Assembly (NCBI GenBank): GCA_965198115.1
Contig: OZ240241.1
Location: 992,001 to 1,056,000, forward strand
Length of the DNA stretch: 64,000 nt
Origin: Candidatus Latescibacterota bacterium
Lineage (GTDB): Bacteria; Latescibacterota; UBA2968
Direction: 5' to 3'
Part shown: one piece after another, positions 30,216 to 49,127 of the stretch
Layout of the letters: every line of letters begins with the position of its first letter
Position numbering within the stretch: position 1 is the stretch's first letter
Position numbers and translations under genes: made by a program
Notes under the pieces: generated by a model
Seen by the model: only the letters and a program-made list of their open reading frames with translations
Database searches by the model: none
Told to the model about the DNA's origin: nothing

Positions 30216-33200
30216 ATGGATCGTCCTATCATAAAGCGTCTTGGCGCACTTCTGGTCGGCCTGACCGTCCTCGGGCTGAGCGGCCTCCTAACGCTCCCAC
30301 TCGCTTCGGACGACCGAACAGGAAAACCCAACTACAAGAAGACAGCCAAAGCCAAAGCATCGGAAACGCCTCTGGCCGCGAAGGTTGCCCAGCTCGATAG
30401 CTCCAAGCGATCTGCCGCGTCCAAACCGGCCCTCAAGTCGGCCGCTGGCACGCAAAACAAGGTCCGCGGCAAGACCACGCTCGGATCCGCCCGAGCTGCA
30501 AAATCGACCAAGGACCGAGGGCTCGGGAAGCTCAGAGCAGCCAAACGTGCGCCGGCCAGCCCTGCGGCAGCCAAACAAATTGCAGCCGCCCGCCTGGCCA
30601 AATCGTCGAAGCTGGCTGCCGCACGCGTGTCCGTAAGGGCGCCGAAATTGGCCATCGCCCGTACGGCGGCGAGGTCGGCGAAGCTCGTAGCTGCCAAGGG
30701 TGCAATCGCGCAGCTAAGTCCGCCCAGAAAGTCGGCCAGCCACGTCCGGTAGCGAGCCGGCTGACCAAGCAGGCCTGACGGGCACGATTGGTCTGGGTGG
30801 TTCGGTCTCCGGTACGCTGGCTGCGAGCTCTGAGGTAGCCTTCTACCAGCTCACCATCAGCCAGGATGTGCCAGTCAACATCGATGTCACATCAGCAGGG
30901 TTCGACACTTTTCTGGAGCTGTTCGACACGGCCGATCCCGCTGCAGCCGACGTTTTCAACCCGATCACCGCCGATGATGACGGCGGTATCGGTTTCAACT
31001 CCAGGATCACACGTCAGTTAGGGCCTGGGACTTATATCATCGCCGTGTCAGCCCTGTTCGGGTCGGGGTCTTTCACCCTTCAGGCAGGTGAACGAAGCTG
31101 TCGCTCAACCCGTTTCCATCGGAGACGTAGCCACAGGCACGAACACGATGGGCTCGGAGTTCTACAGGCTTGACATCGGGTCGCCGACGGCCGTGGTGAT
31201 CGACCTGACAAGCCAGGAATTCGACCCCTTTCTCGAGATCTTCGCCACGGATAGCCCTGGAACCACGAACGCTGCCAATGTGATCGGCAGCGATGATGAC
31301 AGCGGCGGTTCCCTCAATTCGCGTCTTTCGCTCACGCTGGATGCAGGCACCTACATTATCCGGGTGAGCACGATCGCAGAACCGGGTGCTTATACGTTGA
31401 CGGTATCGGGCGACTCGACCGGCGGGGAACCGGCCGGAGGTGGAACGGCGGAGGTAATGGCGATCGGGCCCGGCGAGACCAGGACGGGTGTCCTGTCCAG
31501 CGGTGCGGTGAACTTTTTCGAACTGACGGTTACGACCGACGCCACAATCGTGATTGATCTCACGTCCAGTGAGTTCGACCCGACCCTCGACCTGTATGAC
31601 ACGGACAACCCGGATCTGGCCGGTTCTGGGAATCTCCTGGCCTTCAATGACGACCACGGCCTGTCGCTGAATTCCCAGATTACGCTTGCTTTGACGCCCG
31701 GAACCTATCTGATCGGCGTTTCCGCCTTCATTGCCGGATCGGGCGCCTACGAACTGATGGTGTCAGAAGAAGCGGCCGGCGGCGGAGTGCCTGCCGAGGT
31801 GATTTCGATCGTCCCCGGTCAGACCGAAACGGGGATCCTGTCCAGCGGGGGTGTGAACTTCTACGCACTCACACTCGCCACGGATGCCGCGTTGATCATC
31901 GATCTCACATCCGACGATTTCGACACCTTCCTCGAACTCTACGACACGGGCAGCCCGGACGAAGCAGGGCCGACCAACCTGCTGGCCTTCAACGACGACC
32001 ACGGCCTCTCACTGAATTCTCAGATTATGCTGAGCCTGACCGCCGGCACCTACCTGATCGGCGTTTCTGCCTTCAGCGGGTCTGGCACCTACGTCCTCCA
32101 GGTCATCGAGGACGTTCCCGCAGTGGTCAATTCGATTTCTCTGGGTGAAACGGCTACAGGGTTACTTTCGGCCGGTGGTGCAGTCGATCACTATGTCTTT
32201 ACCCTCGGTCAATCCACGACCGTCTCGATCGACCTGATGTCCGAGGAATTCGACGCGACACTCGAGTTGCACGCGACGGATGACCCCAACGCGGTAGATT
32301 TTCTCACGTTTGTCGCTTTTAACGATGACGGGGGCGAGGGGCTGAACAGGGATCCTGGGTGCGCTGGCGGCGGGTAGCTATCTGATTCTGGCATCGTCGC
32401 TCGACACAGGGGGCGCCTACGACCTGACACTCGCCGAAACGACGATAGAAGTCGGGAGCATTGCCCTTGGCGAGACGGTGATGGGGAGCGTCGCCTCCCC
32501 TTCGGACACCCGCTATTTCACGCTGGACCTTGCCGAGGAGGCGACGGTTGTGATCGACCTCGTCGGCGATGAGATCGATGCGTTTCTGACGCTCCACGCA
32601 ACGGATGATCCGGCGACAGCCGACTTCACGACGGTGGTCGGCGTGGACGACGACGGCGGTGAAGGGCTCAACTCCAGAATCGTGCAGCCACTTGCCGCTG
32701 GAACCTACCTCATCGCCGCCGGCACGATTGGTGGAGGGGGGGCCTTTACACTGAGCGTCCTGCCGGCAGATATCAACGTCTCGTCCATCGGCGTGGGCGA
32801 GACGGCGACGGGTGCGTTGGCTTCGTCCTCATCTACAGACTACTACACGCTGACCCTGAGTGAGGCGACGCCCATCGCCATCGACCTGATATCCTCCGAA
32901 TTCGACCCTTTGCTCGAGCTGTATGAGACGGACGATCCGGTGGATGCGGACTTTAGGACATTCCTGGCCGTCGATGACGACGGCGGTGGCGGCCTGAATT
33001 CGCGTATCACACGGGTTCTGCCGGCTGGAACCTACCTCATCGCAGCAAAGTCTTTTGGCGGATTCGGCGCGTATGATCTCACGGTCTCCGAGGAGACGTT
33101 CGAAACACTGGCGATCTCTGTCGGCGAATCGGCTCCAGGCACGCTTCCCACACCGGCCGACGTCAATTTCTACACGCTCACGCTTTCAAATGACCTGACT

Positions 33201-36200: not shown

Positions 36201-38085
36201 TCCTTCACGACTTCCGATATCTTCGCCGGTGCGCTCGTGATTCCCAAAACGTCGCCCGGGTCCGTCGAACTGAACATCGCCCTGACCGGGCAAACCAAGG
36301 TGGAAAACGACGCCGGTAGCATCGGGACCATCACGCTCAACGTGCTCGACGGATTCGAGGGAAGCAGTGCTGTTGAATTGACCCAGGGTTCCTTCGCCTT
36401 GCCGGAAGGGGTCTCACCCGTGACGATTGGTGCAGGCGGTGCGACGCTGGTCGTCGGAGGCGACGGTGCGGCACCGCTTACACCGGACTTCGACGGAGAT
36501 GGAACGGTTGGCTTCGCTGATTTCCTGGCTATATCCGGATCTCTCAACGAGATGAAGTGGGTGAAGGTGCCGTGGTTCCTGGCATGGGGGCGCGGTTAGC
36601 GTGTGCGGAACCTCTTCGGAATCTGCTCAGGGATGTTTATGTCTCCGACGGTAAGGAAGATCATATCGTTGAATGCGTCGAGTGTGCGGAATCCGCTGGC
36701 TCGGTTCTTGACGATTTGGACGATTCGGTTGAGGCCTTCGGCGATGGCGTTGGTAAGACGCGTGTTCACGAATGCGAGGACGCCGAAGAAGTGCTGTCGC
36801 AGGGTCCTGACGAACTTTCGCAGGGGTTCAAGTCGACTTCTGAGTGCGGACGTCGTCCAGCATTTCAGGAAGCGTTCGGCAGCCCAGGGCGCTTTGTATT
36901 CCCAGAACTGCTCGAACTCGTCCTTGAGTCTCCAGGCTCTATAGATTCGGTAGTTCGCCTTCTCCAGTGCTTTGAGATCCCCTCTGGAGCGTGTCGCTGA
37001 GTGCCGGTAGAGGAGCCATCGGAGGCCCTTCATGGCTTTGCGCTCATCCGGGGCAGCTTTACGCCACTGGTCCTTACGGACCTCGTCAACGGCGGCATTG
37101 AGAGCCTTGACGATGTGAAAGCGATCGAGGACCAGCTTGGCATTCGGACAGTGTTCCTGGATGGCTCCGATGTAAGCTTCAAGCTTCGCTCATGTCGCAG
37201 CAGGCCCACTCGATCTTGGATCTCCGGTAGGGACTGAGAGCCTCTGTGAAGAACCGATCGATCGTTTTACGCGCCCTGCCGCGGCCAACCCACACCACGC
37301 AGGAGCGGTCCAGATCGTAAACGAGCGTGGCGTACCTGTGACGCTTGGCGTAGGAGATCTCGTCGATCCCGATGGTTTTGAGCCCTCGGATACGATGACC
37401 TTCACGAAGCCGCGTGATGGATCGGTGAAGGAGATCCGACAGCGTCGAGGCAGAGATGCGCAGTAACTCGGACGCCGCCTTCTGCGTCATGGTCTGGCAG
37501 TAGCGCAGCATGGCATACTCGAAGCGATACGTCACCCGAGAGAACCGCTCCGCCCACGGAATCTCCTCGACCACACGACCGTGGGTAGGACACCGAATCT
37601 CCCGAGGATGGTAGAGAAGCCAGACCCTCCACCCGCACACCGGAATGTCACGCCACCGACGCGGATGGGGCATTGTGCGGACGATTTTACCTCGACGGCC
37701 GCACTCCGGACAACAACAACCATTCTTATGTGGCTTTACGGCGATGACGAAACAGCTTCTCCCCTCAAACCACCAGCTGACAACACGGAACCCCTTGAAT
37801 CTCAGCAGTTTCGATAGTAATCTGCTCCCGGTCATAGGTCGCACCCCCTTCGCTTTGATTGTCCTACACACACAACCAAGCGTAGGGAACGATCTATGAC
37901 CTTGTCATTCTATAGTTTCACCGTTGAGAAACCCGGATAGAGCCGATTTCCTGACTCTGGCCGGCAAATTCGGTTCGTCGGCCGGCGACGGTATCTACGA
38001 AGCCCGGGTCGACCTCGACGGAGACGGTTCCATCGGGTTCGGTGATTTCCTCGAACTCGCGGGGTCGTTCGGGTCCAGCTTTTAG
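30216..38085 (+). pseudogene. Giant secreted protein: Lys/Ala-rich N-region, 13 PPC-like repeats, 2-3 cohesin-like domains, C-terminal dockerin-like EF-hand pair; frameshifted and IS-interrupted
   Basis: 13 copies of FD.FLEL..(D/N)DD.G...(N/D)S.I...L..GTY.I; frameshifts near 30750, 31085 and 32350; DFDGDGTVGFADFL|TLAGKFG..DLDGDGSIGFGDFLELAGSFG is continuous across the ISL3 TSD. Confidence 0.85.
36527..37944 (-). mobile_element. ISL3 copy 4 (transposase broken by 7-nt duplication AAGCTTC; also a 9-nt deletion)
   Basis: Both IRs; 8-bp TSD GATTTCCT. Confidence 0.96.
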
Positions 38086-42572: not shown

Positions 42573-43128
42573 CGTGATTCTTACGTTCGTGGCGTTATAA
42601 TCGTCGAACCCGCTATTGGGGATGATAATTCATTTCAGGCGATGAGTCTGCAGGTTGCACGATGGTCCTACGATGAGTCCTGTACCTCGCGGTGGTAGTG
42701 AACCATCAACCCTTGATGTGTAAGCACCCCGACCAGCTTCATACTCTCCTCGTTCTCCACAACAGGCAGGGTCGAAACGTCTCCTTCTGCCAGGAGGGCG
42801 AGCGCTTCGGAAAGCGGTGCGTCCACTTCGATGTGAGGAGGATTTGACGACATCATATCCTCGGCGATAAAGAGCGTGAACAAATCATCCTGAAACACAA
42901 CCGGTTTGATGTCGGACAGTGGGATGATGCCTTTTAGACGGTCCGTGTCGTCGACGACCGGAAAATCAACGAGGGTACTGTTCTGGAAGACTGCAGAAAT
43001 CTCTCCGAGAGGGGTGTGCGTTCGCACGAACTCGTAGCCCGTCGACATCGCCTCTCCGACAGTAAGGCGATTGAGGACGTTCAGGTCAAAGCCCTGAGAG
43101 ATCCTCAAGCCCCTCCGGGCGAGCTTCA

Positions 43129-43930
43129 TGTTACGGCTTACGATAAATTCCCGCCCAGATTACGCTATTCGCATTCTCACGCATCAAGAACTGACGACCG
43201 GAGATAAGAACTCTCTGGGCGTTCCGATGTAGACCGCGTCCTGTTCATTCCCACACGCCCGAGAAATAGGCTCTCGAACCGAGAAAATAGCGCGTTTCGA
43301 CCGATTAGGCTCAAGACGTGGCCAGGCCAGGTCCCAGCGGGCATAGGGGGGTGCGCGGTGTTGGCCCTGGGCGCGTCGCTGGCCCGAGGCCCGCACCAGG
43401 GGGGTAGGGGGGGTGGAAACGGTCAGCTCTCTTTTGGACACCGGTCATGTCCCCATTCTTTTACTAATCCGTCCTAATTTTCGTTCCGGAGGGCGCATCG
43501 CGGCCGTTGTCGACGAAAGGGGGTTTTTTCAGGTGTCGGAAACACTTAAACCAGTGCAAAAACAAGAGCTTGCGTCTGTCGACAAGGCGGCTTTGAAGGT
43601 GCTTCCCGAAAATGGCGAAGCGGGGTAGAAAATCGGCCGTCTCCCTGGCGGTGCTGCCGGTCGTGGACCCGTCGGAGGTCGAGAGCGTTTCGCGTCCCGA
43701 TCCCCCGGAATGTGCCAAACGCGTTCGCGTAAAGAAAGGGACAGCGTAGGTCCGACAACCGCTTTTGGCCGTTGCGCCTTGTAAGTACTCCTATGGCACT
43801 ATGTCGCATGGCCGCCAGATCTTAGGTGACCCTCATTAGGGAACGGTTTCCACTGTTAACCGTATTGAAACGATTCTGCCTATTTTGCGAATAGCTTAAG
43901 CCGGGCGGAGAATTATCGCAAGGCGTCACA
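43129..43930. mobile_element. Non-autonomous TGT...ACA mini-transposon with phage-packaging-like cargo
   Basis: 45-bp terminal IRs (36/45 identical); 7-bp TSD AGCTTCA at 43122-43128 and 43931-43937; no transposase. Confidence 0.9.
43612..43749 (+). pseudogene. N-terminus of a phage small-terminase-like gene
   Basis: GAAGGTG RBS; MAKRGRKSAVSLAVLPVVDPSEVESVSRPDPPE then loss of pattern; lies downstream of a cos-like tract. Confidence 0.6.
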
Positions 43931-45456
43931 AGCTTCAACGTGTAGATCGACTCTCGTTCGAGATAGCGGGCGAACAAGGAGCTGATGACGGTTCCGAGGA
44001 TCAGCGGGAGGATGATTTCGTAGTCGTCGGTCAGCTCGAACAGAATCAGCATTGCCGTCAGGGGCGCGTGCGTCGTTCCCGCGACGAGCGCCCCCATCCC
44101 GACGAGGGCGTAAGCGCCCGGTGGAGACGTGAAGTCGGGGAAGACCGCATTCACGAGGAACCCGAATGCGCCCCCGACCGACGCACCAATGAACAAAGAT
44201 GGCGCAAAGATGCCCCCGGACCCGCCTGCGCCCAGGGTGATGGACGTGGCGAGGAGTTTCACGGCGAGTAGACCCAGGATCAGCGTCACGTCGATCTGAT
44301 TGACGAGGATGCCCGTAATGGTGTCGTAACCGACCCCGAGGATCTGCGGAAACAGAAGCCCGATACCTCCGACCACGAGGCCACCCAATCCTGCCTTCAG
44401 ATAACTGGAGACCGGGAACTTTTCGAAGAGATCCTCGAAGGCGTAGAGCGTCTTCATGAAAAAGACAGCCAGCGTGCCGCTGAGGAAACCGAGCACCACG
44501 TAGAATAGGAGCTCGTAAAGGCTCGAAAGCTCGTATTCCGGGATGACGAAGGCCGTCTGGTTGCCCGATGCGTAACGGCTTACGGCGTTTGCGACGACCG
44601 AGGCGAACAGAATCGGGCTGAAGGTGCTGATGCTGAAGTCGCCGAGGATGACCTCCAGCGCAAAAAAACCGCCTGCGATCGGAGCGTTGAAGGTGGCGGA
44701 AATACCCGCCGCGGCCCCGCATCCGACGAGGACCTTGAGACGCTCGCCCGAAAGCCCGAACATTTGTCCGACCGCAGAGCCTGTGGCGGAACCGATCTGA
44801 ACGATCGGACCCTCTCGTCCGACTGATCCGCCCGAGCCGATGCAGAGCGCCGACGCCAGGGTTTTGATCAACGCAACGCGAGGACGGATGACACCGTTGT
44901 TCGTCGCTACCGCCGCCATCACCTCAGGAATGCCGGCGCCCTTGGCCTCTTTCGCCCATAGGTTGACGAGGAGAGTGACCAGAAGAAAACCGAACACGGT
45001 GACCGAAACCTGAGCATAGTTGGAACCGAGAATGGTCGGGACGTCCACGAGGAGTGATCGGGTGAAAAACTCGATCAGCCACTTGAAGACGAGGGAACCC
45101 ACACCGCAGGCAGCGCCGATCCCGACGGAGAGGATGATCAGGAACGGCGTCCCGGCGATACCCACGACGGCGAGCTTCCGCATCGCGTAGCGTCGCACGG
45201 CCTCCAGCCTCCGTTGCAGGCACATCCAAACCGATCCTGGCTCTGGATCAGTTGGTTCCATTTGCACGTTCATCCTTTAGAGGTTCCCGGTGTCCAATGA
45301 GTCGCAATAGCGCTTGATCTACTCGATTGTGCGACTCGACCTTCTCGCTTTCACAGACGTTTGCTTGACTACTGAACGCCGCTCGTCCTGAGCGTGTCCA
45401 GAGATGCAGGTAAGCGCCCGAACGGGTAGTGGCAGCGGACCGCGCACGTTTTCCAC

Positions 45457-46488
45457 CTACCACTCGGTCGCCTCCTCCGTCCATCGTCGCCCGTGTCCAG
45501 CCGCCACGATCTCACGGTTGAGGTAGTGCCCGTTTCGCGCAATCGTAACCGGATCGCTCTCCCCAGGTAAATAAATGATGTCGGCCAAGTAACGATCGTA
45601 TAGGTCTATCTTGGTCGTCGAAACGATGACGTGATCGACCGAAGACAGGGTTCCCACGACAAAATCTCGTGCCCGAACACCTGCGGGTGTCTGTCGTTCG
45701 GGGCTGTCGATGCCGCGGAGTCGAACCTTCTGGTCGCACAACGTTCCGAACCCACAATCGATCGCGACCCATAGCGTGTCGGCATCGATGATCGATGCGA
45801 CGGAAGCGAGGTAGCTGTAAATACGTCGGCGATGTTCATAAGGCACGATCGTGTAACGTCCATCTTCATCCCGTCGGGCTCTGACGAGGGCACCCGCATC
45901 CAGACCGGCGTCGTCGTGTTCGGAAAGACGTTCGAAGACACGAAAGCCAAGGTCCAGGACCCGGCCGATGTCGGGCCTCTCGGTCAGGCGGTAGATCCAC
46001 GGTTCGCCACGCTTGGCAACGAGCTGAGCGGCCTCCGATTCCGCCACCGACTCAGCGTCGGGAAGGGAATCCGCCAACGCACCGTCGGAAATCTGCGCCT
46101 CGAGCTGCCGAACACTCCAACCGTGGGCGATGGCAGCCTCCAAATACCGGTTCCGGACTGTGGAATCGCCGATTCGGATGAGCCGCCGGTAGTGGCTCCA
46201 GGACAAATGTGGCCCCGGGGCCACTTTTTCGATTCGGCGCCGAAATTCGACGATTTCGTAGAGCAGCCGTTGGTCGATGCCGACGTCTGCCGCCAGACGC
46301 GTGATCGTCTGGTCACCGTAGCTCCGATCGATGGCGTCGAGGTAGGCGCGGACCCGGGTGCCGACGGTCCAATACGTTTGGAGACGCGCCGATTCGACAG
46401 CCTTGCGGGCCTGGTCGCGGCCTTCTTCGAGAGCGGCTGCAACGTCGGATCTGAGCTGTGGGTAGTCGGGGGCGTGTTCGAGTGTCAA
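45457..46488 (-). CDS. DUF1016(YhcG)-N-terminal domain fused to a thermonuclease (SNase) domain
   Basis: GAGGAGG RBS; LQTYWTVG..SYGDQTITRLAAD..LSWSHYRRL..GWSVRQLE; IIDADTL..VRLRGIDSPE..DLYDRYLA..LNREIVAAGHG. Confidence 0.88.
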   Translation of the reverse strand: MTLEHAPDYPQLRSDVAAALEEGRDQARKAVESARLQTYWTVGTRVRAYLDAIDRSYGDQTITRLAADVGIDQRLLYEIVEFRRRIEKVAPGPHLSWSHYRRLIRIGDSTVRNRYLEAAIAHGWSVRQLEAQISDGALADSLPDAESVAESEAAQLVAKRGEPWIYRLTERPDIGRVLDLGFRVFERLSEHDDAGLDAGALVRARRDEDGRYTIVPYEHRRRIYSYLASVASIIDADTLWVAIDCGFGTLCDQKVRLRGIDSPERQTPAGVRARDFVVGTLSSVDHVIVSTTKIDLYDRYLADIIYLPGESDPVTIARNGHYLNREIVAAGHGRRWTEEATEW

Positions 46489-47865: not shown

Positions 47866-49127
47866 GTGCATGGTTTCATAAACATTATTACGTATGTTCT
47901 GAACATTATTTGTAGCTTATGTTCTCCTTCAAAAGGAGGAGAACAATGCCAAGACGTTCGCCTTATGTGGTGCTACTGTCTGAGAAGGAACGGGTCGACC
48001 TCGAGCGAATGGCTGGACAATATACGTTACCGTATTATCAAGTGATCCGATCGAAAATCGTGCTTCTCGCCGCCGAGGGATTATCCAACAAGATTATCGC
48101 CCAACGGTTGGATGTCCCGCGTCCGATCGTAAGCAAATGGCGTAAGCGCTTTTTCGAAGAGCGTCTTTCGGGACTCGAAGATAGATCTCGTCCCGGGCGC
48201 CCGCCCGGTTTTCCCCCCTCAGGTGGTCGTTCAGATCAAGGCGCTGGCGTGTGAACTACCGAGCGAGAGCGGGATACCGCTCTCGCGGTTCAGCTGTTCC
48301 GAGATTGCCGCCGAGGCAGTGCAAAGGGGCTTCGTTGCCAAGATCAGCGGCGCCACTGTCTGGCGCTGGTTGAACGAGGACGCGATTCGTCCTTGGTATC
48401 ATCGCTCCTGGATTTTCCCACGGGACCCGGACTTCCAAACCAAAGCAGGTAGAGTCCTTGATCTGTATCACCGCCAATGGCAAGGAAAGCCTTTAGGGCC
48501 GAGGGAATATGTACTTTCTGCCGACGAAAAGACCAGTATTCAAGCACGAGCTCGCAAGCACGTTACCCTACCGCCAGCCTCGAACAGAGCGGCACGCGTT
48601 GAAACACGAATACGAGCGGAAAGGAGCCCTGGCCTATCTGGCTGCTCTCGACGTGCACAATGGTCGAATCTTCGGTCTCTGTGAGTCTTCTTCGGGTATC
48701 GAGCCCTTCAACCGGCTCCTGAGCCTGATCATGAGCCGGAAACCCTATTGCTCGGCAAAGAAAGTCTACCTCATCGTGGATAATGGCTCCTCGCACCGAG
48801 GGCAAACATGCATCGACCGTATCCAGGGGAAGTGGCCAAACATCCACCCCGTTCACCTTCCGATCCACGCAAGCTGGCTCAATCAGATCGAGATCTACTT
48901 CTCGATCCTCAAACGCAAGGCTCTGACACCTATCGAATTTGCATCGCTCGAAGAGCTTGAGGCAAGAATCCTCGGTTTTCAGGAACGCTACGGACGTATC
49001 GCCACACCCTTCAAATGGAAGTTCACACGAACAGATCTCGCGGAGATGATCGACAAACTCAGGTTCTACGATACGCCCTTGGCAAAGTCTGCTTAGAATA
49101 CGTCACCGTATTTGAGAACAGGAGTAC
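47866..49127 (+). mobile_element. IS630-family IS inserted at TA inside a REP
   Basis: HTH ORF from 47946, TTTTCCCCCCTC slippery site, ADEKTSIQ, DNGSSH, SWLNQIE; additional frameshift near 48603; imperfect IRs. Confidence 0.92.

Follow-up and report, generated by a model that had tools for sequence, protein, structure and literature searches.

What is the short insert that splits a ClC gene at this locus, how did it move, and what does it carry? The window we analyzed is a 64,000-bp stretch of a Candidatus Latescibacterota bacterium, positions 992001-1056000 of a single 8.43-Mb contig (genome G000). The initial annotation had placed here an 802-bp element with 45-nt inverted repeats and a 7-bp target-site duplication (TSD), AGCTTCA, and its coordinates, length, TSD and repeats were all borne out; the inverted repeats are 80% complementary. 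The proposed interruption of a ClC gene was confirmed as well: the 5' part matches Voltage_CLC (E 3.7e-106), the 3' part matches two CBS domains, and removing the element with one TSD restores an open ClC-CBS frame of 599 codons. Both ClC junctions are bridged by contigs in sequencing run X2, which is possibly the source sample. No intact ClC orthologue was found in four relatives with the query used.

The longest stop-to-stop frame within the element is 108 aa. The element encodes no transposase, and the sole family match of the internal peptide is to terS. An integrase, an att site, AlpA and replication genes are absent from the element, which has no room or ORF for them, and a search of it for a sigma-70-like promoter found none. 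Structured RNA was dropped as possible content, the three weak Rfam matches to the element all lying far below threshold. The internal landmarks described earlier (repeats at 43259 and 43279, a G-tract, a T-run, an A-rich stretch and an ORF beginning MAKRGRK) are all present. A GGACA-N7-TGTCC dyad described with them exists in the window copy but is allele-specific, occurring in 3/17 aligned copies.

Table. Features of the element and its host gene, in window positions.
Feature	Position	Strand	Remarks
Whole non-autonomous element, 802 bp	43129..43930	+	one of ~19 genomic copies
Left TSD AGCTTCA (7 bp)	43122..43128	+	
Left end: TGT and RCGATAA-type sites at positions 12 and 34	43129..43173	+	predicted transposase sites
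cos-like site 1 (D3/PAJU2/KpF5 type)	43203..43270	+	core seemingly shorter than in D3
Pair of direct repeats immediately 3' of site 1, spaced 20 bp	43259..43290	+	
Extra G-tract repeat	43334..43353	+	
cos-like site 2: G-tract, GGACACC as in D3, hypervariable core, T-run	43396..43482	+	
A-rich stretch bounded by TTGTCGAC (43507-14) and GTCGACAA (43578-85)	43507..43585	+	
terS stub, 45-aa ORF (MAKRGRK)	43612..43749	+	first ~35 codons homologous to phrog_12559 terS
Right end: TGT and two predicted transposase sites	43886..43930	-	
Right TSD AGCTTCA (7 bp)	43931..43937	+	
ClC gene, 5' part, split by element	43938..45273	-	
ClC gene, 3' part (CBS-CBS)	42668..43121	-	

Copies in the genome and the composite

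Genome-wide, G000 contains 19 left ends and 20 right ends, which form 18 pairs; 17 pairs are 751-823 bp long, and one of 3,598 bp is interrupted by other transposase ORFs. Exact 7-bp TSDs, each different, flank 12 of the 18 pairs, while among the remainder one has a TSD matching at 6/7 positions, three have none and two share one outer TSD. The number of ends and the exact, distinct TSDs together argue that the element is not a chance pattern. A single genomic copy, according to the initial annotation, would have spoken for deletion after insertion; instead there are ~19 copies with TSDs, and we conclude that the unit moved as a mini-element. The target consensus from 13 TSDs is N-S-W-W-W-S-N. 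Copies are 89-100% identical in pairwise comparison (median 94.7%) and lie mostly more than 80 kb apart, with only 3/18 gaps between left ends below 50 kb. Those of 751-765 bp arose by deletion between the extra G-tract repeat and the next G-tract. In 8/12 reconstructed empty sites a frame of 270 codons or more is open.

Two copies, at 1437467 and 1426913, share the outer TSD CTACAGA and delimit an 11.3-kb composite (1437467..1426120) that sits in an IS gene. The pair has carried along 9.8 kb of cargo, and the two direct inner copies are 100% identical at aligned columns. Because the direct copies are identical and have an outer TSD, and because three copies lack a TSD, the composite may have formed by replicative cointegration, as for mini-Mu. 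Read as a natural mini-Mu, the element has been amplified ~19-fold, splitting genes and moving 9.8 kb of host DNA. Part of the composite cargo (L007:7406-11187; G000 1427405-1431186) is a 1069-aa ORF with Rpb2_3 and Rpb2_6 (beta) and Rpb1_2 (beta-prime) domains, a compact RNA polymerase beta/beta-prime fusion; the ORF adjoining it is presumably ECF-sigma-like.

The full element was not found in 167 other genomes of the phylum, eight of which have matches of 26-36 bp (E 3e-5 to 9e-3) that we took as chance. A separate search in relatives found it in 0/60, and viral contigs searched for the cos core, an element end and the terS homologue yielded no loci; a scan with the transposase as single protein gave none that was confirmed. 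Among five of 23 listed sequencing runs, the ones examined, the element is contained in X1 and X2, which come from one study and may be the source, X4 and X5 (other studies) contain internal pieces of 230-310 bp at low depth, and X6 contains a 70-bp piece.

The ends and a transposable phage family

The composite cargo also includes a DUF3102 gene together with an rve transposase of 460 aa (phrog_1748 and phrog_310), situated 99 bp from one of the right ends. The transposase gene (G000:1434299-1435678) is the only near-complete one of its kind in G000; it stops at 460 of ~538 residues, is C-terminally decayed and keeps the invariant D154, D240 and E276. The 15 relatives that match it best have lengths of 523-550 aa; they belong to phrog_310 and are located in transposable phages that encode B protein, Gam, terminase (terL) and portal. 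Of the phage to which this transposase belonged, DUF3102 and the transposase remain in G000, with no B protein, terL or portal left there. The DUF3102/phrog_310 family is present in 4/168 genomes of the phylum. The transposase, or an intact ancestor of it, is the candidate for the element's cognate enzyme. In run X2 a contig spans the junction from transposase to element, reaching only 29 nt into the element. Further fragments of the transposase region occur at three places in G000 (4614919-4615130, 117762-118008 and 5660750-5661089), one of them 1.2 kb from the element copy at 4613746.

In the family prophage of genome G108, the tail-side end is set independently by the divergence of two copies. 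Compared with both ends of the element it is identical at 20/27 positions in terminal register (binomial P 4.7e-7), and the early-side end agrees with the element's left end at 27/45. A blast match at 32710 in G108 was rejected as the phage end, being a coding-region coincidence; the real end is 33336. Genome G168 holds a complete family prophage of 40,029 bp whose ends match the element at up to 15/20 positions and which has a 6-bp TSD; for the G108 and G169 prophages a TSD was not recoverable, the G108 flanks giving none. The motif T(G/A)-N9-RCRATAA-N15/16-RCRATAA, composed after the ends had been inspected, occurs in 10/27 family sequences (~8 distinct phages) and always at a terminus, many of the 17 sequences without it being partial loci. 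A pattern drawn from the element and G108 ends matches only those two of the 168 genomes, a result that is circular in part. The motif defines exact ends for a poorly described family of transposable phages. Both TG and TA ends occur in this family (G169, G172, L033/L044, L059), and the G108 prophage, which exists in several broken copies (C1:33336, C2:9859, C2:4131971), has one TG and one TA end.

The 7-bp TSD of the element differs from the 6 bp of G168, the sole complete family prophage checked, and from the 5 or 6 bp given for Mu and B3 in the accessible text of PMC8705779. The initial annotation had left the ends among IS21, IS481, Mu and Tn7 types; the agreement in register points to a Mu/B3-like phage, and no IS21 examined shares these ends. 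Its suggestion of a longer parent with both transposase and terminase or capsid genes found no counterpart, as no autonomous transposable cos-phage or satellite turned up. With Mu-like phage ends around cos-type DNA, the element probably depends on a borrowed phage transposase for its copying, and an enzyme from a Mu/B3-like phage is likely to have spread it through the chromosome.

Cos-like sites, terS stub and a candidate helper

The cargo had been read as a phage packaging module, and the G-tract region does align with DNA upstream of terS in D3, PAJU2 and KpF5. A further cos-like site upstream (site 1, ~43203-43270) had been overlooked; its allele in the window copy is damaged by an 8-bp G-tract deletion. 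In D3, a G-tract and GGACACC stand before GCGCCCCCA and terS follows 37 nt later; GGACACC is also found in site 2. The element has the D3-type layout, which we take to be that of HK97 also, with G-tract, ACC, core and T-run upstream of terS. The final bases of the D3 record are GCGCCCCCA, the 9-bp cos of this phage according to the accessible part of bioRxiv 10.1101/2025.08.30.673261, and the accessible part of PMC7326022 does not state the PAJU2 termini. Judged by position, the direct repeats 3' of site 1 are probably cosB-like terminase-binding sites, not transposase sites. The A-rich stretch, which is common to the cos-like modules of an island at 8.40 Mb, is probably cosB-like too.

A phage-only profile built from the D3, PAJU2 and KpF5 cos regions and run on all of G000 gave 82 matches with E values of 200 or less. 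The top 20 are all copies of the element (best E 0.0037), and a resident prophage comes in at rank 26. Of these 20 matches, 18 lie at offset 74-87 (site 1) and the others at site 2, and, the copies being non-independent, they count as two modules, not twenty. The score of copy 1309691 against KpF5 was reached by 0/1000 shuffles and 0/2000 random windows, and that against PAJU2 by 7/1000 and 22/2000, with the phages and windows picked after the likeness had been seen (PAJU2 and KpF5 by terS, D3 by the KpF5 core). Searching phage records by blastn with either cos-like site gave chance matches only.

Both cos-like regions are kept in 17/17 aligned copies, and variation among copies is highest at 43404-43453. 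The core of site 2 (~43443-43454) falls into three allele classes, held by 6, 6 and 5 of 17 copies, which occur in combination with two types of left arm and three of right arm, so that alleles are shuffled among copies. A four-gamete break falls across just 7 bp (43439/43446), the shortest of eight such intervals; breaks at the seven others, of at least 12 bp, indicate that mosaicism is general.

The stub peptide alone gave one weak PHROG match, to terS phrog_12559 (E 0.18). Against 1.84 billion representatives it had nine matches, and the five that share 69-74% over its first 35 residues themselves match phrog_12559 at 2e-7 to 2.5e-17; the peptide thus has the terS homologues that the initial annotation expected. 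One of these close homologues retrieves the annotated terS of PAJU2, KpF5 and KPP5665-2. Thirteen close homologues that were aligned (P0029-P0042, ENA-only) are all cut by about residue 83 and have ragged tails; they are found on contigs of up to 476 kb and perhaps represent another family of cos-terS relic elements. The element's stub is frameshifted inside the homologous part in 3/17 copies, so it is probably retained DNA and not a working gene. A phrog_12559 profile had no match in 168 genomes, where its control was likewise silent, and a word search for longer terS relatives found none.

A decayed island at 8.397-8.403 Mb contains the same cos-terS module without transposon ends; positions 43613-43806 of the element are 96%, and 43394-43577 are 88%, identical to its modules. 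The island module has an 82-aa ORF ahead of the stub, between two 10-bp direct repeats. Five homologues of this ORF finish with the residues GEAG and overlap the start of terS, which suggests that the element lost the ORF by deletion, probably between the 10-bp repeats. Two weak matches to the 82-aa ORF in genomes of the phylum stood in unrelated host context and were set aside. The island (G000 8382000-8404000; L003, L001) holds three separate cos-like modules (8403447, 8400659 and 8397030), together with a DUF3631 fragment, a resolvase, ParA and a duplicated 186-aa ORF. Another island (L006:8094-14106; G000 5976093-5982105) is satellite-like, with a tyrosine integrase (phrog_1), a 190-aa terS (phrog_1889) and what we take to be an AlpA-like ORF; it adjoins an orphan left end of the element (5976093) that continues into a different right part.

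A profile made from the element itself weakly matches G000 663702 (E 0.005), a site that directly precedes a terS of phrog_83 (terS and terL at 663.8-666.0 kb). This resident cos-type prophage, a candidate helper, has the only PF03354 terL and the only PF05065 capsid of the genome, along with portal, protease and tail genes; its genes are in open frames, with no repeat insertion across 644.3-678.8 kb, and an integrase was sought there and none identified. The left arm of site 1 (43219-43236) agrees with the prophage at 17/18 positions, and outside the element this 18-mer, with 0-1 mismatch, occurs only at 663734, before the prophage terS. The predicted core of the prophage equals that of no element copy, and its terS and the element's stub are unrelated, belonging to different terS families.

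Readings of the element and known systems

It is highly probable that the ends come from a Mu/B3-like phage and the cargo from a cos-terS region, an origin common to the first three of the readings weighed here. The one we prefer, at a probability of about 0.5, is that the element is a multicopy natural mini-Mu and that its cos-like sites would give a cos-type helper phage a starting point for packaging at a copy. Phage ends would have been joined to cos DNA from a cos-bearing, satellite-like island, a helper terminase would begin at the predicted cos-like site of a copy, and the DNA might then be packaged in phage particles. Since a single unit of 800 bp is too short to fill a head, flanking chromosome, composite circles or concatemers would have to be packaged. 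Counting against the preferred reading are the TSD length, the truncated transposase without other genes of its phage, the lack of any copy with the prophage core, the shorter core of site 1, the differing terS family and frameshifts of the stub, the wide spacing of the copies, the general mosaicism and the failure to find the element in the 167 other genomes or in viral contigs. More tentatively, we propose that the element is a gene-less double parasite, using a phage transposase and a cos-phage terminase, with swapped cores and ~19 packaging starts that would transduce flanking DNA; core alleles exchanged by recombination would tune it to different helpers. If the sites work, an 800-bp element joins the within-genome mobility of a MITE to the between-cell mobility of a phage satellite, and the genome is seeded with transduction start sites.

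Alternatively, phage ends may have captured a piece of a decayed cos-bearing island, leaving an inert passenger amplified through its ends alone. This is a possibility to be taken seriously, if doubtful: it would suit the 96% and 88% identity to the decayed-island modules, the stub frameshifts, the lack of any core identical to that of the resident prophage, the absence of the element from 167 other genomes and the general mosaicism, which fits ordinary gene conversion. Against it stand the retention of both cos-like regions in every aligned copy and a cargo that is almost solely packaging DNA; tandem sites of different ancestry and three core alleles are unexpected under random capture, and satellites with two cos sites are known (accessible text of PMC6739421). 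We think it unlikely that the element is instead the remnant, left by deletion, of a longer autonomous and transposable satellite or phage with a Mu-type transposase, cos packaging and its own terS. No such parent was found in G000, family prophages have a phrog_675 terL (and L033 a phrog_2414 terS), the cos profile matched none of the family loci searched with it, and phrog_12559, like its control, was silent in 168 genomes; still, the orphan left end beside the integrase/terS island, the 13 truncated metagenome terS homologues and the union of element and transposase in the composite are what such a history could leave behind.

TG..CA ends with a 7-bp TSD fit IS21, and the element might then be an IS21- or IS481-type MITE, with the nearby phage transposase a coincidence. 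An orphan right end (25523) near an istA fragment and four istA matches over the cut-off in the genome agree with this. However, another repeat separates that orphan end from istA, and the boundaries at 12 IS21-like sites (two without a defining repeat) are unlike the element's ends. Genomic sequences within nine mismatches of the 30-nt ends, the element aside, lack the motif, whereas the element matches phage ends in register. We therefore regard this reading as very improbable, and an IS21 parent was rejected, with no istA or istB inside the element and no resident IS21 having these ends.

The element can be compared with several known systems. Mini-Mu elements are known as engineered tools. 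Like Mu/B3-like phages and mini-Mu (accessible text of PMC8705779), the element has TG..CA ends whose repeated sites are spaced at 22 bp, a phrog_310 DDE transposase beside one copy, near-random targets, host DNA moved between direct copies and some ends without a TSD. In contrast to them it is natural and multicopy, has a TSD of 7 and not 5 or 6 bp, and carries cos-type rather than Mu-type packaging DNA; in place of the 36-39-kb genome with A, B and virion genes that marks such a phage, it has 802 bp and no phage genes. With prokaryotic MITEs (accessible text of PMC11389934) it shares terminal inverted repeats, TSDs, many copies, disrupted genes and the lack of a transposase, but its ends are from a transposable phage, not an IS, and phage packaging DNA lies inside.

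Cos-type PICIs such as EcCICFT073, with two cos sites (accessible text of PMC6739421), resemble it in having paired cos-like sites, no capsid genes and a likeness to a co-resident cos phage, here in architecture and one arm and not in the core. Unlike them, the element has no integrase, AlpA, primase or Rpp, and has many target sites; its packaging is predicted only. The D3, PAJU2 and Klebsiella KpF5/KPP5665-2 3'-cos regions share with it a G-tract, ~25 nt, ACC, core, T-run and terS, and its stub belongs with PAJU2 and KpF5 to the MAxRGRKS terS family, whereas in the element the cos is duplicated, the core variable or shortened and terS cut after ~35 codons, with no terL. The element can be classed as a MITE and not as a transposable phage, an IS21 or a PICI; by analogy, it would work like a mini-Mu with a PICI-like double cos (PMC6739421, accessible text). 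A literature search covering few subscription journals, and sources in their accessible parts, found no report of transposable-phage ends or cos sites in a MITE. MITEs and phage satellites, both helper-dependent, are treated separately in the accessible text of reviews, and MITEs and cos-bearing hitchers are mentioned separately in that of PMC11389934.

The genome is heavily IS-laden. Two IS21-type units of 2,191 bp (G000 7128712-7130902 and 5888421-5890611) are 99.95% identical, and one of their boundaries resembles, by eye, part of a tRNA gene. Within the window, 36557-37871 and 47919-49096 are transposase ORFs that belong to two further high-copy IS families, presumably ISL3-like (frameshifted here) and IS630-like. 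At 45457-46488 on the minus strand lies a 343-aa ORF that resembles a fusion of a DUF1016-type N-terminus with a thermonuclease-like domain.
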